NCBI GenBank assembly: GCA_029260905.1
Contig: JAJDCH010000010.1
Coordinates: 13,027 to 77,026 of the forward strand
Source: Candidatus Levyibacteriota bacterium
GTDB taxonomy: Bacteria; Patescibacteriota; Microgenomatia; Levybacterales; UBA12049
Length of the DNA: 64,000 nucleotides
Reading direction: 5' to 3'
The notes under the pieces are model-generated. The model searched no databases and was not told the DNA's origin. It was given only the letters and a program-made list of their open reading frames with translations. Shown piece by piece: positions 2,064 through 45,107 of the stretch; within the stretch, counting starts at the first letter, position 1, and each line of letters starts with the position of its first letter. Made by a program: the position numbers and the translations under genes.

Positions 2064-2651
2064 TTATCCTTCTGGTTCAGGAGGTAAGAATTCTTCTCCT
2101 TGGTTGTCAGCTCTCTCTGGATATTCGCTTGGTTTGAGCCAGTAAATATATGTACACCCTGTTGCTTTTCTTGCCTCACGATCCCAACCTGCTGTTGAGC
2201 ATTTTTTCATTTTTTTACCTGCATTGGTTGTGAAGAGAACAAGCTTTTTTCCGCATTCAGGACAGTCTTCATCCAGTGGCTCAGTTGTTCCATTTATCCA
2301 CTCGACATAATCGCAGCCATCTACTTTTTTGGTTTCTTTATTCCAGACACCAGTACTGCATTTTTTCATTTTTTTACCAAATCTGGTAGTTGCAAGAATC
2401 AATTTGGATTTGCATTTAGGACACTCCTCATCCAATTCTTCAGGTTCTATTTCAAGCCACAAGACATAGTCGCATCCGATATTTTTCTTTTCTTCTGCAT
2501 CCCATGAGCCTTTTGAGCATCTTTGAAGCTTTCTTCCTGTTTTGGTAATAGTTGTTTCTGAAAGGGGAGCGCCACACTTGGGGCAAATATTTTCGTCTGT
2601 TTTATTTTCTTCTGTTTGAGCCATGAGATTTATCATACTTTGTTTTGTCAT
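2064..2651 (-). CDS. protein of three tandem CxxC zinc-ribbon repeats, resembling the topoisomerase-type C4 finger
   Basis: Three repeats of about 55 aa: 'CPKCGAPL..RCSKGSW..GCDYVLWL', 'CPKCKSKL..KCSTGVW..GCDYVEWI' and 'CPECGKKL..KCSTAGW..GCTYIYWL'. Each has four Cys. Confidence 0.6.
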   Translation of the reverse strand: MTKQSMINLMAQTEENKTDENICPKCGAPLSETTITKTGRKLQRCSKGSWDAEEKKNIGCDYVLWLEIEPEELDEECPKCKSKLILATTRFGKKMKKCSTGVWNKETKKVDGCDYVEWINGTTEPLDEDCPECGKKLVLFTTNAGKKMKKCSTAGWDREARKATGCTYIYWLKPSEYPERADNQGEEFLPPEPEG

Positions 2652-2712
2652 CTTAAGTCAAGCGTGTCTTGTATCTATGCATTTTTACTAGCCTCTGATA
2701 TGATATCGCTCT

Positions 2713-3906
2713 ATGGTAAAAATGTTTCGGAATAATAGAAATACTTTGATAATTGCATTAATTGCAGTCGTAAATGCGCTTGGCTATGGAATCATTATTC
2801 CTATTCAGTATTCATACGGTCTGACATATGGATTGTCTGATTTTCAAAATGGGCTACTTTTCTCGCTTTTTTCTTTCTGTCAATTTTTGGCAACTCCAAT
2901 TATTGGCAGACTTTCTGACAAATACGGAAGAAGACCTCTTCTGATCACATCTATTGCAGGAACTGCTCTTTCGTTTTTTATGATGGCTTTTGCGCCAAAT
3001 GCTTTATTTCTTTTTATCGCAAGAGCTCTTGATGGAATAACAGCAGGCAACATCCCTGTTGCATCAGCCGTAATATCTGATACAACGACCAAGGAAAATA
3101 GAGCAAGAGGATTTGGGATAATTGGCGCGTCATTTGGTTTTGGATTTGTTTTTGGTCCTGCTATATCAGGGCTAACTGTGGGGATATCATCACATCTGCC
3201 ATTTATTATCGCTGGAACAATTGCATTGATTGCTGTTGTGATTACAACAATTTTTTTACCTGAAACAAACAAGCACATCGGAGAGGTTAAGAAGGAAAAG
3301 CTATTTAATTTTAAAGCGCTTTGGCACTCACTTTTTGCGCCAGCTACTGGTCCTGTTTTTTTGATAACATTTTTTTATTTTCTGGCATTTGCTTGCGCTA
3401 TTATCTATGGATTTCAACCATTTACTCAGAAAATACTAGGAGTCACTATCACACAAAATGCTTATCTCTTTACGCTTTTTGGGACTATCGGGCTTTTATC
3501 TCAAGTTTTTCTGGTTCAGAGATTTGTCAAAAAATTTGGATTAAGAAAAGCTTTTTCATCAGCAATTATCATTACTGCTGGTTCTTTTTTGTTGATGTTT
3601 TTAAGCCGTTCACTGGCTGTTTTTGTTATAGCAGCAGTGGGGCTTGGTCTTTTCAATGGATTTGCACAAACTCTTATTCCAACCATTCTTTCTAGGGAAA
3701 CAGACGAAAGATCTCAGGGAACTATGCTGGGTCTTAACGCGTCTTATCAAAGTATGGGCATGATTTTTGGTCCGATTTTGGGAGGAGTTCTTGCGACATT
3801 TGCAATTCCTCTTCCGCTTCTGGCAGGCGCAGTGATACTTTTGCTTTGTTTTTTCTTGTCATTTAGGGTTCTCAGACCTGGAGTTCATAAAGAGTCAGCT
3901 TTTTAG
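2713..3906 (+). CDS. MFS transporter
   Basis: About 12 transmembrane segments and the MFS loop motif 'GRLSDKYGRRPLL'. Confidence 0.8.
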   Translation: MVKMFRNNRNTLIIALIAVVNALGYGIIIPIQYSYGLTYGLSDFQNGLLFSLFSFCQFLATPIIGRLSDKYGRRPLLITSIAGTALSFFMMAFAPNALFLFIARALDGITAGNIPVASAVISDTTTKENRARGFGIIGASFGFGFVFGPAISGLTVGISSHLPFIIAGTIALIAVVITTIFLPETNKHIGEVKKEKLFNFKALWHSLFAPATGPVFLITFFYFLAFACAIIYGFQPFTQKILGVTITQNAYLFTLFGTIGLLSQVFLVQRFVKKFGLRKAFSSAIIITAGSFLLMFLSRSLAVFVIAAVGLGLFNGFAQTLIPTILSRETDERSQGTMLGLNASYQSMGMIFGPILGGVLATFAIPLPLLAGAVILLLCFFLSFRVLRPGVHKESAF

Positions 3907-3964
3907 TAAATCTCAAAAAGTGCTATAATGATAGTATAAACTGCAATAGGAGTGTGAGTATGAT

Positions 3965-4588
3965 TTGACAGAACACAAGATCGGCAGGAGAGAGTTTTTA
4001 CGAAGGGTAACTGTACTAGGTGGGGGTTATCTTCTTGGTCTTGGGCGTTTGGGAAACACAAAAGAGCCTTCTCCCAATTCTTCGGTAAAAGGACTCATTG
4101 ACAGAAAAAGTAATGCTGGATCAGAACCTGTTGATGTTTCTGCTCTAGCACCTCAAATAAGCGCAGAGGATTTAGAAAAAGCTCAGAAAAATTTTTTCCC
4201 TGTTCAAGGAATCATCAAAGAAATTCTTCCAAATGATAAGGGAGGATGGTATGTCAAATGCGAGCCAACAGAAGAGCAAAAAGCAATTCCTGCTTGCAGT
4301 GCCTGGGAATGGTTTAAGCTAGGATTTGACGTTCCTGGTAGTCAGGAAGATATAAATAAATTTCGGGCTGATTTTGCCAGACATGTTGGAAGAGTTCTGA
4401 GTACAAATATTCCAATTCCACCTAATGTTTTAGATTATATTGAACCAGATAACTTTACTTCAGATTTGAAAGAAAAGAGAACAGCAGAAAGAATCGTAGA
4501 GGATATTTCCGTTAAAAATTGGTTTCAGATTTTGTATAGACAAGATCTTTATTTTACTAAAGTATCAAGGGATATTGAGATTTTTTGA
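3965..4588 (+). CDS. hypothetical exported protein with a twin-arginine-like signal and a TTG start
   Basis: The N-terminus 'MTEHKIGRREFLRRVTVLGGGYLLGL' matches the Tat consensus R-R-x-F-L. The first codon is TTG. Confidence 0.4.
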   Translation: MTEHKIGRREFLRRVTVLGGGYLLGLGRLGNTKEPSPNSSVKGLIDRKSNAGSEPVDVSALAPQISAEDLEKAQKNFFPVQGIIKEILPNDKGGWYVKCEPTEEQKAIPACSAWEWFKLGFDVPGSQEDINKFRADFARHVGRVLSTNIPIPPNVLDYIEPDNFTSDLKEKRTAERIVEDISVKNWFQILYRQDLYFTKVSRDIEIF

Positions 4589-4639
4589 AATAGATTTTAT
4601 TCTTCATATTTTTATATTCACTTTTGTTATAATAAAAAA

Positions 4640-5623
4640 ATGAAGAATTTCAAAAATGCCAAAAGTAACCTGAGACTGTTTTTAACCGGATTTGGGATGG
4701 GAGCTGCCGATCTAATACCAGGTGTGTCTGGTGGAACGATTGCGTTTTTATCTGGAATTTATGAAGAGCTTTTGTATTCAATAAAATTAATTACAGGAGA
4801 AGCGCTGGGTTTGGTTTTGAAAGGGAAAATAATAAAAGCCTTCAAGATAATTCCTTTTAAATTTTTAATTCCGCTTGCTTTGGGAATTTTTAGTGCAATT
4901 TTTGTACTCGCCAATCTTTTTTCATATCTTCTTAGCAATCAAGCCGTATATGTTTGGTCTTTTTTCTTTGGGCTCGTATTGGTGTCTGTTTTTGTGATTC
5001 TCAAAAGAATTGTGAAGTGGGATTTGTCAGATAAAATAAGCTTTGCTATCTCAACTGTTTTTGCTTATTTTTTAGTAGGGCTCGTACCAGGCGAGACACC
5101 TGCAGCTCTTGTTTATTTTTTCTTAAGTGGGATGGTTGCTATAACTGCGATGATTCTTCCTGGTATTTCTGGATCATTTATACTTCTACTTCTTGGAAAA
5201 TATCAACAGGTGCTTAATGCTGTGACACAGCGTGATTTTTTAACTCTTGGTGTATTTATTCTTGGCGCGCTCGTAGGGCTCGGGCTTTTTGCAAGAGTTC
5301 TCTCATGGCTTTTTAAAAACCATCATGATATTTCAGTTGTTGTTTTGGCAGGATTTATGCTTGGCTCAATCAGAAAGCTTTGGCCATGGCAGGAGATTGT
5401 TGCAACCAGACTAAATAGTCATAATGAGATGGTGCCAGTTGTGGTTAAAAATGTTTTGCCGCAAAATTTTGATTTTTCTTTTGTTGCAGCTGTTATCCTT
5501 GCTGTGATTGCAGGTTATATTATTTTTTATCTTGATAAAATTCAAGTTGTGAAAGAAAAAGTAAAAGACGTAGAAAGTGATAAGTTTGAAAAGCATCACA
5601 AAAAAGCGCTCAAAAACCAGTAA
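4640..5623 (+). CDS. DUF368 family membrane protein
   Basis: Duplicated motif 'PGVSGGT...' and 'PGISGSF...' in a polytopic membrane protein. Confidence 0.65.
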   Translation: MKNFKNAKSNLRLFLTGFGMGAADLIPGVSGGTIAFLSGIYEELLYSIKLITGEALGLVLKGKIIKAFKIIPFKFLIPLALGIFSAIFVLANLFSYLLSNQAVYVWSFFFGLVLVSVFVILKRIVKWDLSDKISFAISTVFAYFLVGLVPGETPAALVYFFLSGMVAITAMILPGISGSFILLLLGKYQQVLNAVTQRDFLTLGVFILGALVGLGLFARVLSWLFKNHHDISVVVLAGFMLGSIRKLWPWQEIVATRLNSHNEMVPVVVKNVLPQNFDFSFVAAVILAVIAGYIIFYLDKIQVVKEKVKDVESDKFEKHHKKALKNQ

Positions 5624-5628
5624 AGCAT

Positions 5629-6909
5629 TTATAGCTTGGATACTTTTTTAAGATTTTTTACCAAAATTTCAATTCCCTTATCAGCTTCGTTTTTTGTGAT
5701 AATAATAGGGGGCATAACTAATATAGTTGAACTTCTGCCAGACCAGACAATATGCAATCCATCTGCCTGAGAGAACTTTTTGACTTTTATGGCAGCCTGA
5801 TTATTTGGTTTCTTGGATTTTTTATCAGTAATAAGTTCTACTCCTATTTCAAGTCCGGCTCCTCTGATATCTCCGACAATTTCTAGGTGAGTTAATTCTT
5901 GTTTTAGTTTTTCAAGCATGTAATTGCCCATCTCTTTTGCTTTTTCAATTAGGTTTTCTTTTTGGATAATCTCAAGTATTTTTGCTGCGGCAACAACAGA
6001 CAGGGTATGCCAACCAAAAGTAGAAGTCCCTCCTTTGCCAAGCATGCTATTTGCTATTTTTCTTGATGTGGCAACAGCACCCATCCCGCCATATCCGTTG
6101 GTAATTCCTTTTGCAAAAGTGATGATATCTGGTTCAAAATCAAAATGCTCAAAACCAAACATCCGTCCAGTTCTTGCAAATCCTGTCCCAACCTCATCAA
6201 TTATAAGAAGTACATCATTATCATCACAAATTTTTCGAAGATTTTTGAAAAAGTTTTTCTGCGGGATGATAACACCTGGGCAAGTCTGAATTGCCTCGCA
6301 AAGAAATGCTGCTACATTTCCCTCAGACTCTATTTTTTCCTTAATTTCTTTTAGACACCTTTTGGAACATTCTTCATCCGTTATGTTTTCACCATAGGTG
6401 GATTTATAGTTATATGGAGGCTGTATTTTTATAAATCCTGGAACAAGAGGCTTAAAAGGATTTGTGGTTTTTTCGGAATTTCCAAGCGAGATAGATCCAA
6501 ATGTCTGTCCATGATATTCGTTATGAAAAGAAAGAACTTTTTTCTTACCTGTGTATGCTCTTGCTATTTTAAGAGCCAGCTCATTTGATTCAGTGCCACC
6601 AGTTGTTTTGAAAAAAGTGTTAGTGCGTTTGGGGAGAAATTTTTGCAAAGACTTTGCATAGTTAACAACTACATCTGTTGAGCACCACATGGGGGAGTAG
6701 GGGAATTTGGTCATTTGCTCTGTGATGGCATCAGCGATTTCTGGCCTGCTCCAACCGATATTTACGACATTCCAGCCTGATGTAAAGTCAATATATTTTT
6801 TGCCCGACTCATCAACAAGAGTTGATCCATAAGCTTTTTTAAGAACAAACCCCTCTCGATCTTCAACAGTCTCGCCAAGAAGCATTCGTTCTTGAAGATA
6901 GGTGTCCAT
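5629..6909 (-). CDS. class-III PLP-dependent aminotransferase, ArgD/GabT-like
   Basis: 'DEVGTGFARTGRMFGFEHFDFEPDIITFAKG' is the class-III aminotransferase signature. The ORF extends to 6930 with a TTG codon. The ATG at 6909 is the more likely start. Confidence 0.8.
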   Translation of the reverse strand: MDTYLQERMLLGETVEDREGFVLKKAYGSTLVDESGKKYIDFTSGWNVVNIGWSRPEIADAITEQMTKFPYSPMWCSTDVVVNYAKSLQKFLPKRTNTFFKTTGGTESNELALKIARAYTGKKKVLSFHNEYHGQTFGSISLGNSEKTTNPFKPLVPGFIKIQPPYNYKSTYGENITDEECSKRCLKEIKEKIESEGNVAAFLCEAIQTCPGVIIPQKNFFKNLRKICDDNDVLLIIDEVGTGFARTGRMFGFEHFDFEPDIITFAKGITNGYGGMGAVATSRKIANSMLGKGGTSTFGWHTLSVVAAAKILEIIQKENLIEKAKEMGNYMLEKLKQELTHLEIVGDIRGAGLEIGVELITDKKSKKPNNQAAIKVKKFSQADGLHIVWSGRSSTILVMPPIIITKNEADKGIEILVKNLKKVSKL

Positions 6910-6973
6910 ATTGAAATAATTATACACCAATGCTTTCCCAATTACTTATTTTGAGATTTTTTGGCTTTGATTC

Positions 6974-6982
6974 TGCTATAAT
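6974..6982 (+). promoter_or_regulatory. putative extended -10 promoter (TGcTATAAT) for ychF
   Basis: TGCTATAAT sits 8 nt upstream of the ychF ATG, which implies a near-leaderless transcript. Confidence 0.3.
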
Positions 6983-6989
6983 CACAATT

Positions 6990-8093
6990 ATGAATTTATC
7001 TATCGGTATTGTTGGGTTGCCCAACATTGGTAAATCTACATTGTTTAACGCGCTTCTTAAGAAGCAGGCTGCTCTGGCTGCCAATTATCCATTTGCGACA
7101 ATTGAGCCCAATGTCGGGATCGTTCCTGTGCCGGACAAGAGGCTTGAGACATTGGGAGAAATCACCAAAACTGAGGAGAAAATGACTGAGTTGCCGCCAA
7201 TAAAACCTGCTACAGTTGAGTTTTACGATATCGCAGGGCTGGTCAAGGGAGCATCGGAGGGAGCGGGACTTGGGAATAAATTTTTATCCCATATCAGAGA
7301 AGTATCAGTGATCGCACACGTGGTTCGCGCATTTACTGACCCAGATGTGATCAAAGAGGGAGCAGTTGATCCCAAGAGTGATTATGAAGTTATCAATGCG
7401 GAGTTGATCATCTCAGACTTACAGACACTTGAGAAAGTAAATTTGAAAAAGCATGAATCAGAAATTAAGAATTATGGAGAAGTGATAGAAAGACTGAAAG
7501 AAGCCTTGAATAAGGGCATATCTGCAAGAGATGTTGATTTGTCAGATGAGGAAAGAGATGCTGTAAAAGATCTTTTTCTTTTATCAAGTAAACCTGAGAT
7601 AACGGTTCTGAATTTGTCTGAGGATCAGTATACCCCTCAGGGAATTGATGAGATGGTTTCAGAATACGCAAGGGGTTTGGCTATAGATTCAGAAAATATG
7701 GTGGCGATTTCTGCCAAGATAGAGTCAGAGCTGGCTTCTTTATCAATGGAGGAGCAGAAAGAGTATTTAGGCGATATTGGTCTTCAGGAGTCAGGACTGG
7801 AGAGGTTGATTCAAAAAGCTTATGAAAAACTTGGTTTGATTTCATTTTTGACAGCAGGTGAGAAAGAGGTCCGTGCATGGACAACTAGACTCAGTGCAAC
7901 TGCGCCTGAGGCAGCAGGGGAGATACATACAGATTTTACCAAAAAATTTATCAAGGCAGAGGTCGTGAGTTTTGAAGATTTTGTTGAGAATAACGGTTGG
8001 AAAGGCGCGCGGGAGAAGGGCAAAGCAAGGCTTGAGGGAAAAGACTACATTATGAAGGATGGAGATGTGGTGGAGTTTAAGATCGGTGCATAG
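6990..8093 (+). CDS. ychF: ribosome-binding ATPase YchF (Obg-family GTPase)
   Basis: 'MNLSIGIVGLPNIGKSTLFNALL' contains the G1 P-loop. There is a TGS-like C-terminus ending DGDVVEFKIGA. The start is chosen at the internal Met 6990. Confidence 0.9.
   Translation: MNLSIGIVGLPNIGKSTLFNALLKKQAALAANYPFATIEPNVGIVPVPDKRLETLGEITKTEEKMTELPPIKPATVEFYDIAGLVKGASEGAGLGNKFLSHIREVSVIAHVVRAFTDPDVIKEGAVDPKSDYEVINAELIISDLQTLEKVNLKKHESEIKNYGEVIERLKEALNKGISARDVDLSDEERDAVKDLFLLSSKPEITVLNLSEDQYTPQGIDEMVSEYARGLAIDSENMVAISAKIESELASLSMEEQKEYLGDIGLQESGLERLIQKAYEKLGLISFLTAGEKEVRAWTTRLSATAPEAAGEIHTDFTKKFIKAEVVSFEDFVENNGWKGAREKGKARLEGKDYIMKDGDVVEFKIGA
8058..8086 (+). repeat. direct repeat copy 1, the last codons of ychF
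   Basis: gatggagatgtggtggagtttaagatcgg, followed by tgcatag (stop). Confidence 0.7.
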
Positions 8094-8104
8094 TTATTTA
8101 GAGT

Positions 8105-9175
8105 ATGAGTTCTGAAAGAGATAATTACAGAGGTCAGGAAAGAAATTATTTGAATCCTAGTAGAAGTCCTTTTTGGCAACGTACTCGTCTTAGTGGGCCT
8201 GATAAATTCAATCTGTATGGCCCAAGAAAAAAGCTTAAAGATTTTTATCTCGAGGCAAGTGCAACAGGGGAAGTATTTGAATTTTTTGTCTACAAAACAT
8301 TGCCTCTTGAATTTGCAGATCTTGTTGATATACCCCATGATGAGGTCGAGATAGAAGAGGTTATATTTCGAACAGGAAGATTATACGTTCCAGAAAAGAG
8401 AAGCATATCATTCAGAAAAATATTTAACTCTGAAGATAGAGGTCCTGAAATTTCTCGTGCTGTGCCTATGAGTAGTGCTGATAGTGAAGTGATGACCTTT
8501 TTAGCGTATACTCTTGTTGCAAATGAGAGATATAGAGAATTAACACCTGATGAGTTAAACACCAAATCAAGTGAAGTAATTTTGAAAAAAACAGGAGTTT
8601 TAAATCGATTATCTCAGTCTGGATTTCCTGATTTAGTCTCAGAAGAAAATGCTGAAATTATAAGTAGGGTTATTCCTGAGGATATGAAGGATAAATTCTA
8701 TGGTTCTGTTGCTGATTGGTTGACACATCTCGCCTTGTATTCAGTAGCTAAAAATTCATCTCTAAGAGGCAAGTATGTATTCCCTTTTCCTTATTTAATT
8801 AGTGACGAGAGGCTTCCGCATCCTGATTTTCTGCCATATATGGGAAAATCACTTTTGGAATTTGGATATCTGCTTGGTTCTGTTCTTACAAAAGGGGTAA
8901 ACTATCATGCAGAAGTACTAGTATCAGCAGGTGAAAATTATCTGAAATTGTGTGAAAAAGTTTTGTCTCCGAGCAAGCAGGTAAAAAATAGAGATAGATT
9001 AATGGCTGAGGTGAATAGCTTTAAGTTAGATTATATAAGCCTTTTGAAGTTTTATCAAAAATATCCTGGTTTACTAAATCAGAGTAAAATATCTCCTAAG
9101 GATGAAGAGCCCAATTTGTCTACTACAGAGGAAATTATAGGAAAAGTACAAAAAGTTATAAAAAAATATTCTTAA
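8105..9175 (+). CDS. hypothetical protein that lies between the duplicated ychF 3' ends
   Basis: 356 aa with no motif I recognise. It begins 11 nt after the ychF stop. Confidence 0.5.
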   Translation: MSSERDNYRGQERNYLNPSRSPFWQRTRLSGPDKFNLYGPRKKLKDFYLEASATGEVFEFFVYKTLPLEFADLVDIPHDEVEIEEVIFRTGRLYVPEKRSISFRKIFNSEDRGPEISRAVPMSSADSEVMTFLAYTLVANERYRELTPDELNTKSSEVILKKTGVLNRLSQSGFPDLVSEENAEIISRVIPEDMKDKFYGSVADWLTHLALYSVAKNSSLRGKYVFPFPYLISDERLPHPDFLPYMGKSLLEFGYLLGSVLTKGVNYHAEVLVSAGENYLKLCEKVLSPSKQVKNRDRLMAEVNSFKLDYISLLKFYQKYPGLLNQSKISPKDEEPNLSTTEEIIGKVQKVIKKYS

Positions 9176-9226
9176 GTTAGTTGGGTTGTTGAGGTTAAAG
9201 AGATGAAAAAATAGAATTATTTGCTT

Positions 9227-9255
9227 GATGGAGATGTGGTGGAGTTCAAGATCGG
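9227..9255 (+). repeat. direct repeat copy 2, a relic ychF 3' end
   Basis: gatggagatgtggtggagttcaagatcgg, followed by cagctaa. It matches copy 1 at 28 of 29 positions. In frame it reads DGDVVEFKIGS-stop. Confidence 0.7.
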
Positions 9256-9301
9256 CAGCTAAATCTTGCGTTTTAGTTTTCTCGTTGTTATTATTTAGTT
9301 G

Positions 9302-9751
9302 ATGTCGGAATTTCCACGCTTTTTGAGGAAAAAGGGAAAAGAATCAGACAATCTTAATAGGCCTTCTAGTTTTGTAGTCAGTAAAAAAACAGATGATGGC
9401 ATACAAGGACCACCCCAGAGGCTCAGCGTCGGTAGTATATTTCCCTTTTATGAAGATGGAAATATCTCTGCACTTCTCCGTGTAACAGGACCAACAGCTG
9501 CCGATGTAGTGATAAGTAGGGGAGGCTCAAGGTCTGTTGTGAATCATAGCTGGACCTTTGATGCAGAAGGAAAAGGACACCTGACTGTTACACAAAATGG
9601 AATAAATAACATAGCTACACATTTAAGGGGTTTGCGAATCGACAAGGATGGTATACGAAGTAATAATATGGAAATTAGGTATAGAAAAATTGATTCATCT
9701 ATCCCTGTGACTGTCTTTTCTGCTTCACCTGCTCCCAGCCCTGTGTATTAA
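9302..9751 (+). CDS. hypothetical protein
   Basis: ORF of 149-150 aa with no motif I recognise. Confidence 0.35.
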   Translation: MSEFPRFLRKKGKESDNLNRPSSFVVSKKTDDGIQGPPQRLSVGSIFPFYEDGNISALLRVTGPTAADVVISRGGSRSVVNHSWTFDAEGKGHLTVTQNGINNIATHLRGLRIDKDGIRSNNMEIRYRKIDSSIPVTVFSASPAPSPVY

Positions 9752-9809
9752 TAGTTTTCATTTCCCAACTTTATAAAAATCCTATTTTGAATGTTATAAT
9801 ATACCCGCT

Positions 9810-10607
9810 ATGGTTGATTTTCACTATCTTGACAGCAAATGGGTAAGGACGAAGGATTTGAAAATTTCTGCATTTGATCTAGCAGTTCTCAGAGGCTACG
9901 GCGCGTTTGACTACCTCAGGGTTTATAAAGGAAAGCCATTTATGCTTGATTTGCATATTGAAAGATTTTTGCACTCCATTGCTTCGCTAAAGCTTGAAGC
10001 TTCCAAAACAAAACAGGAAATTGAGGAGCTTATTCTTGAGGGAATCAAGAAAAATCAAAAAGATGGGGATCTGTCTGTGCGGCTGATTTTGACAGGAAGT
10101 GGTGTTTTTATGGTCATGTATGAGGAGTCAACTGTCTATCCAGATAAATATTATGAGAATGGGATAAAAGCAGTTACTTTTAGAGAAAAAAGAGTACGAC
10201 CTGATGTCAAATCAATAAATTATGAAACAGCCATGATTGCAGCCAATTTTGCCAAAGAAAAAGGAGCATTTGAAGCTATTTTTGTTGATGATGGCAAGAT
10301 CTATGAGGGGACAAATTCCAATTTTTTTGTGGTAATTGATAAAGAATTGATAACACCCAAATTTGGAGTTTTGAAAGGTGTAACCCGTCAGGTAATACTT
10401 GATCTAGCACGTAAAAGAAGCATTGAGGTTATTGAGCGGGATATAGAGCTTGGTGAGCTATCAAGTGTAGATGAGGTCTTTATCGCATCAACCAGAAAAG
10501 AAATCATGCCAGTTATTCAGGTGGATGATATTAAGATAGGAAATGGACAAGTCGGAGATATGACAAATAAGTTGATGGAGGAATTTAGAAAGCTGACAAA
10601 AAAATAA
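9810..10607 (+). CDS. class-IV aminotransferase, of the IlvE/Dat/PabC fold type
   Basis: 'RGYGAFDYLRVYKGKPFMLDLHIERF' is typical of fold-type IV PLP enzymes. Confidence 0.7.
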   Translation: MVDFHYLDSKWVRTKDLKISAFDLAVLRGYGAFDYLRVYKGKPFMLDLHIERFLHSIASLKLEASKTKQEIEELILEGIKKNQKDGDLSVRLILTGSGVFMVMYEESTVYPDKYYENGIKAVTFREKRVRPDVKSINYETAMIAANFAKEKGAFEAIFVDDGKIYEGTNSNFFVVIDKELITPKFGVLKGVTRQVILDLARKRSIEVIERDIELGELSSVDEVFIASTRKEIMPVIQVDDIKIGNGQVGDMTNKLMEEFRKLTKK

Positions 10608-10663
10608 CTGATGTTTACTTTTACCACTTGAGATATAAAGTGAGGGTGTGCTAAAATACACAC

Positions 10664-44171: not shown

Positions 44172-45107
44172 ATGAAAAACCTAAATCTTACTGAGCAAAT
44201 CCAGCAATTTCTTGAATATCTGGAGATTGAAAAAAACTGCAGCAAGCTTACTATTCGTGATTACAAACATTATCTGGAGGTGTTCAATGATTGGTTTGCT
44301 ACTTCCCTTCCAGGAAAAACTGTAAAAGATTTGGATTTATCACTTATACGAAAATACAGAGTTTTTCTAGCTAACTATCAGGACGCGAAAGGACGAAGTA
44401 GAAAAAGGGTTACGCAAAATTATTATGTTATTGCCCTACGATCATTCTTGAGATTTTTGATCAAAAATGATGTTCAAACTCTAGAACCTAGCAAGATAGA
44501 TCTGCCTAAAACAGAAAGCAGAAGTTTGAAATTTTTAGAGAGAGACCAGGTTGAAAGACTTGTCACAACACCAGATACCAGCAAGGAAGATGGTGTACGA
44601 GATAGAGCTGTTTTGGAGTTGCTTTTTTCAACAGGTCTTCGTGTATCAGAACTGGTATCACTTAATCAAGAAAAGATAAATCTTGATAGACGGGAATTTG
44701 GAGTAATTGGAAAAGGGCAAAAAGCAAGAATTGTTTTTATATCTGATAGGGCTGCTGATTGGATTGGTAAATATCAACAAATAAGAAAGGATAGTTTTAA
44801 GCCGCTTTTTATCAGATATTCTGGAAAAGTGATTGATGAAAATGGTGGTGAGAAAATGAGGCTTACTGTAAGATCGGTTGAACGAATTGTCAAAAAATAT
44901 ACTCGTCTGGCAAGACTTCCAGTTGATGCGACAGTTCATACGCTCAGGCATTCATTTGCAACGGATTTACTTATGAATGGAGCAGACCTCAGATCTGTTC
45001 AGGAGATGTTGGGACACAAGAATATCGCAACTACACAAATCTATACCCATATTACAAATAAACAATTAAGAGATGTTCATAAAGCCTTTCATTCTGGGAA
45101 TAAATAA
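44172..45107 (+). CDS. tyrosine site-specific recombinase, XerC/XerD-like
   Basis: C-terminal 'HTLRHSFATDLLMNGADLRSVQEMLGHKNIATTQIYTHI' contains the R..H..R..Y catalytic tetrad region. Confidence 0.8.
   Translation: MKNLNLTEQIQQFLEYLEIEKNCSKLTIRDYKHYLEVFNDWFATSLPGKTVKDLDLSLIRKYRVFLANYQDAKGRSRKRVTQNYYVIALRSFLRFLIKNDVQTLEPSKIDLPKTESRSLKFLERDQVERLVTTPDTSKEDGVRDRAVLELLFSTGLRVSELVSLNQEKINLDRREFGVIGKGQKARIVFISDRAADWIGKYQQIRKDSFKPLFIRYSGKVIDENGGEKMRLTVRSVERIVKKYTRLARLPVDATVHTLRHSFATDLLMNGADLRSVQEMLGHKNIATTQIYTHITNKQLRDVHKAFHSGNK

Follow-up and report, generated by a model that had tools for sequence, protein, structure and literature searches.

An integrase-less single-gene insertion in the last codons of ychF in Candidatus Levyibacteriota and recurrent duplicated ychF ends in other genomes

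The ychF locus and its duplicated end

The stretch analyzed here, below called the window, comprises 64,000 nucleotides of a Candidatus Levyibacteriota genome (assembly GCA_029260905.1, contig JAJDCH010000010.1, positions 13,027 to 77,026 of the forward strand) and harbors the gene ychF, whose last codons occur a second time further downstream. Between both copies a single long open reading frame (ORF), ORF356, is located. The original prediction, made from the DNA letters, had described the ychF terminus as occurring twice about 1.17 kb apart, in frame and each time with a stop codon; coordinates as well as sequences match this description.

Each copy consists of the DGDVVEFKIG codons, one further codon and a stop codon. 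The end of ychF at position 8093 reads GAT GGA GAT GTG GTG GAG TTT AAG ATC GGT GCA TAG, and the second copy at 9227-9262 reads GAT GGA GAT GTG GTG GAG TTC AAG ATC GGC AGC TAA. This corresponds to a direct repeat of 29 nt with copies at 8058-8086 and 9227-9255, which are 28/29 identical and 1169 nt apart from start to start. The degenerate 29-mer (up to three mismatches) has exactly two occurrences in the 64 kb and none in 100 dinucleotide-preserving shuffles. Furthermore, a search of the whole window for direct repeats of at least 22 nt within 8 kb, using a 14-nt seed, gave two repeats, the other one being 79% identical; the ychF-end repeat is the sole strong direct repeat of this kind. In a strict local alignment the similarity of the copies breaks off sharply at either side of the 29 nt, and no longer or degenerate homology was detected outside this core.

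The gene itself is intact. Here, the Pfam profile YchF-GTPase_C is covered from position 1 to 83 of 84 (E = 3.7e-35) and MMR_HSR1 is matched as well, and copy 1 is the true end of the working ychF. The public gene call P0016 (387 aa) uses an upstream ATG at 6930. Since all homologues begin at MNLSIG, which corresponds to position 6990, the first 20 codons of this call are probably untranslated. In relatives, natural ychF endings have A, T or S as last residue, and GA* is found in another member of the Levyibacteriota (L001, JACPAR010000015.1). The DNA between the repeats brings the window ychF back to identical length with this natural ending GA*.

The coordinates of the features are listed in Table 1. 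With a GC content of 34.1% in comparison to a window mean of 35.9 +/- 2.9%, the insert displays no anomaly in GC composition. Scans for promoters and terminators stayed at chance level, which likewise holds for a promoter-like match at 9189-9217 in the right-end spacer, and the ends of the insert carry no terminal inverted repeat. That no integrase, transposase or inverted repeat lies between the copies had been stated before, and the Pfam, fold and end-repeat checks agree with it.

Table 1. Features at the 3' end of ychF in the window (att, attachment site).
Feature	Position (strand)	Sequence or domains	Remarks
ychF (redox-regulated ATPase/GTPase), intact	6990-8093 (+)	MMR_HSR1 and full-length YchF-GTPase_C	last 2 codons and stop from the insert
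Copy 1 of the ychF end	8058-8093 (+)	GATGGAGATGTGGTGGAGTTTAAGATCGG+TGCATAG	reads DGDVVEFKIGA*
Repeat copy 1, attL-like core	8058-8086 (+)		aligns to the single L083 core 9141-9169
Substitute terminus from the insert	8087-8093 (+)	T completes the Gly codon, GCA (Ala), TAG (stop)	no alignment to L083
Inserted segment, 1140 nt	8087-9226 (+)		absent from L083
ORF356, 356 aa	8105-9175 (+)		sole long ORF between the copies; starts 11 nt past the new ychF stop
Right-end spacer, 51 nt	9176-9226 (+)		no similarity to ychF or L083; would be the element-side arm beside copy 2 if the repeats are att sites
Copy 2 of the ychF end	9227-9262 (+)	GATGGAGATGTGGTGGAGTTCAAGATCGG+CAGCTAA	reads DGDVVEFKIGS*
Repeat copy 2 and displaced native ychF terminus, attR-like	9227-9262 (+)		runs into the native downstream sequence as in L083
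ORF150, native ychF neighbor outside the insert	9302-9751 (+)		directly after ychF in L083 (150 aa, 83.3% nucleotide identity)

An empty site in a close relative

For the 90%-identity protein cluster of YchF, the contigs of the two other members were retrieved. In L083 (GCA_029260965.1, JAJDCG010000002.1), a 150-aa gene comes immediately after ychF and is itself followed by rpsF, and the core is present in a single copy. In blastn alignments, window positions 6989-8086 correspond to L083 8072-9169 with 83.6% identity and window positions 9227-9749 to L083 9141-9666 with 83.3% identity. Both window copies therefore align to one and the same L083 core (9141-9169), whose left flank goes with copy 1 and whose right flank goes with copy 2. 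The L083 gene ends in ...ATC GGG AGT TGA (GS*), followed by atcttgcgttttagtttt..., and matches copy 2 and the sequence downstream of it, not the tail of copy 1. This alignment reveals an empty site. The last codons of ychF have therefore received an insertion, the segment 8087-9226; copy 2 represents the native terminus in its displaced position, and the TGCATAG following copy 1 (7 nt) came in with the insert. A decayed tandem paralogue of ychF, the other conceivable origin of a second end, is ruled out by the single copy in L083 as well as by the sharp similarity boundary. The insertion with a substitute terminus that had been postulated for the 3' end of ychF is thus borne out, and the arrangement expected of an empty site exists, the L083 gene passing directly into the sequence which follows position 9262 in the window. 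On the contrary, ORF150 had been regarded as a companion of the insert, which is contradicted by its position as native neighbor of ychF in L083.

The nearest genome with an empty site is only 83.6% identical, and it is the relic, rather than a comparison within the species, that polarizes the event. Between the relic and the L083 terminus there are 8 differences over 36 nt. All of them are silent, therefore the relic was the working end for most of the time since both lineages split, and the insertion is, judged from these substitutions, comparatively recent. Along ychF the identity to L083 is even (0.76-0.95 per 100 nt), and this 100-nt profile gave no sign of an imported recombination tract within the gene.

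The best ychF relatives in a set of species-representative genomes belong to Candidatus Levyibacteriota as well, with 66-70% amino acid identity, which places the window in the Candidate Phyla Radiation (CPR; Patescibacteria). In this group, ychF lies upstream of rpsF-ssb-rpsR, and the interval between ychF and rpsF varies. In the window it contains ORF356, the relic, ORF150 and a class-IV aminotransferase, in L001 three other genes, and in a further locus (L002) only about 500 nt of non-coding DNA resembling gene debris.

Sequencing run SRR15505512 was inspected in the form of its Logan contigs. One contig (L081) is identical to the aminotransferase-rpsF-ssb-rpsR part of the window, and another one (L084) harbors ychF of the L083 type with an empty site; therefore, occupied and empty lineages share one sample. 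The window-type contig ends inside ORF150.

The cargo gene ORF356 and the search for a recombinase

An exhaustive HMMER search revealed 14 remote homologues of ORF356 with 385-483 aa (E 1.8e-10 to 1.4e-4, identity of at most 31%), which align over the full length and have the motifs FPYP...P.P.FLPY and P.LLN in common. A model obtained with AlphaFold2 from the homologue alignment reached a pLDDT (predicted local distance difference test) of 77.6 and a pTM (predicted template modeling score) of 0.78 and displays a small beta region followed by a long helical domain. Alignment and model mark ORF356 as a real gene, a member of a very divergent, uncharacterized family. No copy with more than 50% identity is present among about 15 billion proteins, a word-indexed protein search returned ORF356 itself only, exact-sequence look-ups in contigs returned nothing, and a profile search with the family added nothing usable.

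The single 356-aa ORF had been described as lacking a recognizable domain, and Pfam is indeed empty for it, as are PADLOC and PHROGs. Foldseek searches of the model against PDB and BFVD gave nothing with E < 0.09. A hidden nuclease, recombinase or HUH fold, for which a check had been advised, did not emerge; neither sequence nor fold resembles a recombinase, transposase, nuclease or HUH protein in Pfam, PADLOC, PHROGs or Foldseek. A profile comparison with the DUF5677 cargo found at the ychF end of another locus (L075) was negative.

The genomic context was obtained for two homologues and was uninformative. P0010 from a Parcubacteria genome (L082) is located between dprA and a PIG-L gene and not at ychF, and P0002 (L085) lies on a contig of 1.9 kb without ychF, which is too short to judge. 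In the window, ORF356 is probably co-transcribed with ychF. An addiction or defense role would be a guess, by analogy to other cargo at this site.

Among the window ORFs checked, the only recombinase is an Xer-type tyrosine recombinase (Phage_int_SAM_1 and Phage_integrase) at 44172-45107, 35 kb away, and no evidence ties it to the insertion at ychF.

Duplicated ychF ends in other genomes

To what extent this architecture recurs was addressed by two scans of retrieved ychF loci, a non-random sample since the retrieval favored CPR and Actinomycetota. A peptide scan of 133 loci for a second copy of the last 10 residues of each ychF identified 11 loci, in addition to the window, in which another terminus follows downstream on the same strand, and one weak match on the opposite strand, about what is expected by chance. 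A scan on DNA level (137 loci, local score of at least 16), which included three control compartments, revealed a second end downstream on the same strand in 19 of the 137 loci, in comparison to none downstream on the opposite strand, none upstream on the same strand and two upstream on the opposite strand. Among 2585 ORFs of at least 150 aa in the same loci, convincing duplicated ends were found by the peptide scan essentially for ychF only.

The CPR loci with a duplicated end are L001, L006, L096 and L003, and the Actinomycetota are represented by Microbacterium, Kitasatospora, Streptomyces, Amycolatopsis, Enemella, Nanopelagicales and Propionibacteriaceae, among others. The inserts are compact (0.5-5.6 kb) and their cargo differs between loci: AbiEi/AbiEii in L006, YefM/YoeB in L077, HigB/HigA in L042, HigB/HigA and an OTCase-like gene in L076, Barstar in L157, DUF5677 in L075, Phd/RelE-like pairs in L028, L074 and L061, and genes without identification in L001 (ORF232) and L096 (526 aa). 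The identifiable cargo is mostly of the toxin-antitoxin or abortive infection (Abi) type, and a recognizable integrase was found in none of the ychF-end cassettes. In the literature searched, no description of recurrent recombinase-less mini-cassettes at ychF in two phyla was found.

Three of these cases deserve a closer description. The second case from the same phylum, L001, has its ychF end (VVEFKIGA*) at 7123-7158 and a relic with the same reading at 7852-7878, about 700 nt downstream. These copies are identical at 22 of 27 nt, and all five differences are silent. ORF232 (7167-7865), which lies between them and has its stop codon within the relic, gave no Pfam match and displays by eye a GxGxxG...AIK motif. 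In L076, an uncultured Microbacterium, three ychF termini are present (7035-7067, 8529-8561 and 9746-9770). This indicates two cassettes in tandem, the first with HigB/HigA and the OTCase-like gene and the second with a 150-aa gene; decay is most advanced in the outermost relic, which has an internal stop. Finally, a longer, non-canonical ychF tail, RIGNTS(G/S)GSK*, is found in L155 (about 9040-9086), an unlabelled metagenome contig, and with a matching tail in L043 (about 7045-7089), Microbacterium sp. 1154. The downstream relics (about 9587-9634 and 7702-7745, respectively) carry the same unusual tail, and these sequences give the impression that a later insertion targeted a terminus which was itself a replacement.

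The pairs of working end and relic also bear on the mechanism. Although the query reached 12 nt past the stop codon, 12 of the 24 best pairs lose their similarity no more than 2 nt away from it, and the stop is kept at the same codon in 16 of 19 relics. Such a boundary would be expected of elements that carry nothing but the coding tail. Between working ends and relics, 27 differences are synonymous and 16 non-synonymous; the silent/non-silent counts are 5/0 in L001, 5/0 in L076 and 3/0 in L080, and in unselected decay about one change in four would be silent by our own estimate. Since the differences are mostly silent, both ends evolved as working ychF ends. Judged from these substitutions, this is expected of mobile DNA which carries its own imitation of the coding tail, so that tails alternate as working end, and host sequence that was duplicated a single time and then decayed would not be expected to show it. 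The left boundaries of the repeats fall into few classes, namely the DGD codons, the VVEF codons and an 18-19-nt block of FRFNV and stop, which suggests that several recombinase lineages with different cores may act at ychF ends.

Comparison with known mobile elements

Integration at the 3' end of a protein-coding gene had been called rare in the original prediction. For ychF this does not hold, since the TIGER survey reports the gene as target of 26 integrative elements and lists it next to rlmH with psiSCCmec (Mageeney et al., 2020; PMC7192596, supplement). Coding-sequence-targeting elements usually restore their target by a fragment stored in attP, or they hit its extreme tail (PMC7192596). 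Here, Cur1.9.ychF from Corynebacterium urealyticum (8.6 kb, serine integrase) has a 28-bp block which encodes DVVEF(R/K)FNV*, and Gpo3.14.ychF from Gordonia polyisoprenivorans (13.7 kb) harbors a serine integrase 34 bp from its end, a 13-bp block TGGTSGAGTTCCG and a new ychF ending RHG* (PMC7192596). Like the window insert, these islands target the last 8-10 or so codons of ychF, have their direct-repeat block in the same codons and restore ychF, sometimes with a changed ending (RHG* in Gordonia, GA* in the window), whereas the native end is displaced to the far side. In contrast, they are multigene elements of 8.6 and 13.7 kb from Actinomycetota with a large serine integrase, and the window insert is a single-gene, integrase-less segment of 1.14 kb in a CPR genome. 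As in an integrative genetic element, a ychF-derived direct-repeat block is present at both ends of the insert, the site is uninterrupted in L083 and ychF is restored; a multigene unit of at least 2 kb is not found, the insert being 1140 nt with one gene, and since it contains no integrase, it is not an autonomous integrative genetic element. Thus, elements that enter the 3' end of ychF and replace its terminus are already known, and the window adds a minimal, recombinase-less case.

When phage records were searched by tblastn with a ychF tail of actinobacterial type, a match appeared in the Streptomyces satellite phage MulchRoom (OQ784832.1). In unannotated DNA at 7338-7379 (L166 4001-4042), 68 nt from a tyrosine integrase gene, a perfect imitation of the ychF end is located, ATG CAG GAC GGG GAT GTG GTG GAG TTC CGC TTC AAC GTG TGA (MQDGDVVEFRFNV + stop). 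The paper describing MulchRoom mentions no att site (PMC10690885). Judged from its sequence and position, the imitation is probably the attP of this phage, which predicts an integration into the 3' end of ychF. The design of a substitute terminus borne by the element would be the same as the one proposed for the window; unlike the latter, MulchRoom is an autonomous satellite of 14.8 kb with a tyrosine integrase from Actinomycetota. A search of viral contigs for the CPR-type ychF end gave 0 matches. The pneumococcal prophage sites known as 'at ychF' lie upstream of the gene and are a different site.

Elements that lack a recombinase and have att sites of a helper family at their ends are termed cis-mobilizable elements (CIMEs) and pseudo-SCC elements (SCC, staphylococcal cassette chromosome). 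In staphylococci, ccr-less pseudo-SCC elements occupy the 3' end of rlmH (orfX), and CIMEs occupy the 3' end of fda in Streptococcus thermophilus. The window cassette resembles them in lacking a recombinase and in residing in the last codons of a conserved gene that stays intact. They are flanked by att repeats of an integrase-bearing family, and the site in the window coincides with known targets of ychF integrases in Actinomycetota; furthermore, they can stack in tandem, as the array in L076 does. In contrast, helper and mobilization in trans are known experimentally for pseudo-SCC elements and CIMEs, whereas for the window cassette no helper was found and the cargo is a single uncharacterized gene. 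A replacement 3' end is also carried by phage 21 and e14, which integrate in icd of E. coli and leave the original end as a relic. They share the replacement end and the displaced relic with the window; unlike the window insert they are integrase-bearing prophages with a far longer replacement segment. The long repeat block at icd is mentioned in PMC7192596.

A different class is formed by restriction-modification (R-M) cassettes without mobility genes, inserted with long target duplications. For these, repeats of 30-500 bp that sometimes overlap the 3' end of a gene are described by Furuta et al. (2010; PMC2853133), who also cite a study of this class in Helicobacter pylori. Both kinds of insert are accessory or selfish DNA without mobility genes, both of their repeats align to one copy in the empty genome, and an overlap with a 3' end is possible. 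The duplications of R-M cassettes exceed 30 bp, vary in length and are not bound to one gene, whereas the window repeat has 29 nt at a site which recurs (19 of 137 loci) and where a different functional ending is supplied; moreover, at ychF-end cassettes of the window type, and unlike R-M cassettes, similarity tends to end at the stop codon. Neither an integron gene cassette nor a transposon is recognizable. The spacer 9176-9226 contains no inverted repeat and no IntI-type gene lies nearby, with no dedicated attC model run; a transposase and inverted repeats at the ends, as in a DNA transposon or insertion sequence, are lacking, and the repeat has 29 nt.

Origin of the insertion

With moderate confidence we regard the insert as an integrase-less cassette that entered an att site in ychF via site-specific recombination with a ychF tail borne by the element, and which is either a remnant or was moved in trans. 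The segment 8087-9226 would then be a small integrated cassette at an attachment site in the last 10 or so codons of ychF, and recombination would have taken place between the chromosomal ychF end and an imitation of it on the element. The crossover would have taken place within the 29 nt of the core, probably no further downstream than the GAGTT in the Glu-Phe codons. Due to this, ychF would now end in the element-derived ...GGT GCA TAG, and the native end ...GGC AGC TAA would have been pushed 1169 nt downstream as an untranslated relic. The attP-type junction would read ...aattatttgctt + core + tgcatagttatttag..., the junction of the excised circle ...aattatttgctt + core + TGCATAGttatttagag, and at the empty site ...aagGATGGAG...ATCGG would be joined directly to CAGCTAAatcttgcg. 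The cassette may be what is left of an element that once carried an integrase, or it may be non-autonomous and have been mobilized by an integrase supplied from elsewhere, the latter comparable to ccr-less pseudo-SCC at rlmH or to CIMEs. Of the three possibilities that had been raised originally, a non-autonomous insertion and the remnant of a larger element are therefore both plausible, whereas a self-inserting gene is not favored, as the site holds unrelated cargo elsewhere.

Several points weigh against this reading. There is no integrase in the insert or within 8 kb of it. A crude motif scan found no serine recombinase beside ychF in about 165 retrieved loci, and to our knowledge a cognate recombinase has not been described from any CPR genome; the window ORFs, these loci and the viral contigs yielded no cognate element or integrase for the Levyibacteriota. 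Furthermore, the element-side half of copy 2 equals the host ychF at 20 of 20 positions, including 4 synonymous sites where L083 differs, and as a sequence pattern this identity fits a duplication of host sequence or a later gene conversion better than an independent attP. A repeat of 29 nt at 28/29 identity is also what a long target duplication predicts. That an integrase and not an illegitimate event made the insertion, as well as the position of the crossover, is thus what we infer.

The alternative to which the latter points belong is an insertion with long target duplication, in which foreign DNA was joined at breaks staggered by 29 nt via an illegitimate or repair route, so that the 29 nt of the host were duplicated and no site-specific recombinase took part. 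The first 7 nt of the insert would then happen to give a harmless tail of two codons, and only insertions sparing ychF would survive. The class is documented for R-M cassettes without mobility genes (PMC2853133), and the near-identical copies with the synonymous states of the host, the lack of an integrase and of terminal inverted repeats, and the ordinary GC content of the insert are all in line with it. This alternative would nevertheless leave unexplained why ychF stands out among 2585 ORFs, why the similarity so often ends at the stop codon and why the copies at other loci differ mostly at silent positions. Furthermore, the GA* tail is natural for ychF, and six random nucleotides would give A, T or S and a stop in only about 1-2% of cases (own estimate), and integrases using the ychF site do exist. 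Taken together, we judge a long target duplication to be rather unlikely. An import by homologous recombination appears improbable. Here, a cassette with both ychF ends would have been formed in another lineage and have entered the window lineage without a site-specific step, either by a double crossover in ychF and in the homology of ORF150/rpsF, or as a circle in a Campbell-style event via a short ychF-like stretch. A near-perfect core of 29 nt is about the minimum length for an exchange of the RecA type, the interval between ychF and rpsF is variable among the Levyibacteriota, and a close relative is present in the same sample (SRR15505512). On the other side, the even identity of ychF to L083 leaves no imported tract, no copy of ORF356 above 50% identity among the 15 billion proteins marks a donor, and the import would merely shift the origin of the duplicated end to another genome.

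An assembly artefact is very improbable, be it a chimera of two co-occurring strains joined via the shared 29-mer or a collapsed or expanded repeat. Organisms of the window type and of the L083 type are indeed both present in SRR15505512, and no independent assembly of both junctions was found, as ORF356, ychF and ORF150 are not on record in other contigs. However, the relic and the sequence downstream are of the window type and differ from L083 at 8 of 36 and 3 of 42 positions, a join at the 29-mer would still need this 29-mer after ORF356 in real reads, and the architecture occurs in many independent assemblies, including isolate genomes and one complete genome. That ORF356 is itself a mobility enzyme, and thus a new kind of self-inserting gene, can hardly be expected. 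It is the sole gene of the insert and its family is uncharacterized; nevertheless, it bears no likeness in fold or sequence to recombinases, transposases, nucleases or HUH proteins, its homologue P0010 does not lie beside ychF, and other cassettes at ychF hold unrelated genes.

Beyond the window, a broader proposal is put forward tentatively. At least in Actinomycetota and CPR, the final codons of ychF might be a docking site at which tiny recombinase-less cassettes, usually with toxin-antitoxin or Abi cargo, are exchanged and stacked; like SCC elements or integrons, they would be mobilized by integrases that lie outside the cassettes. If this holds true, new single-gene cargo for addiction or defense would be represented by the ORF356 family and by ORF232 of L001. 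The window is possibly the first such cassette seen in a CPR genome.

Neighboring genes

The short region between the native ychF stop and ORF150 (window 9263-9301, L083 9177-9215) has 3 differences in 42 positions in comparison to 66% identity at third codon positions of ychF. Since this conservation exceeds that of the third positions, the approximately 40 nt may hold a functional signal, perhaps the promoter or ribosome-binding region of ORF150.

In comparison to L083, a second single-gene insertion is present in the window, a class-IV aminotransferase gene (9810-10607) between ORF150 and rpsF (window 9752-10663, L083 9669-9719). The short region upstream of rpsF in L083 aligns weakly to both sides of the aminotransferase, including a TGNTAnAATA element. 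This may be another duplication, and the similarity is too weak to call it.

Upstream of ychF (window 2064-6989, L083 1-8000), a zinc-ribbon gene is the only gene shared. From there to ychF, the window harbors an MFS transporter, a 207-aa ORF, a VCA0040-like protein and a class-III aminotransferase, and L083 a hydrolase, a DUF4258/DUF2283 pair, several unknowns, an AstE_AspA-like gene and a Trp repressor. Since the gene content differs here too, both sides of ychF are variable.

Significance

The insertion provides a clean case of site-directed gene gain, verified by an empty site, in a CPR bacterium, a group whose mobile elements have been little described. The more interesting by-product is the recurrence of mini-cassettes at ychF across two phyla, since about 1 in 7 of the sampled ychF loci carries a duplicated end. 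Existing island finders miss these cassettes because they are smaller than 2 kb and contain no integrase; TIGER, for instance, operates with a limit of at least 2 kb and requires an integrase (PMC7192596). Therefore, the duplicated end can be used as a simple and precise marker of recently acquired accessory genes. As a side result, a so far unreported attachment site is suggested for the satellite phage MulchRoom. Since most of the identifiable cargo belongs to toxin-antitoxin or Abi systems, ORF356, ORF232 and the 526-aa gene of L096 are candidates for new addiction or defense functions.

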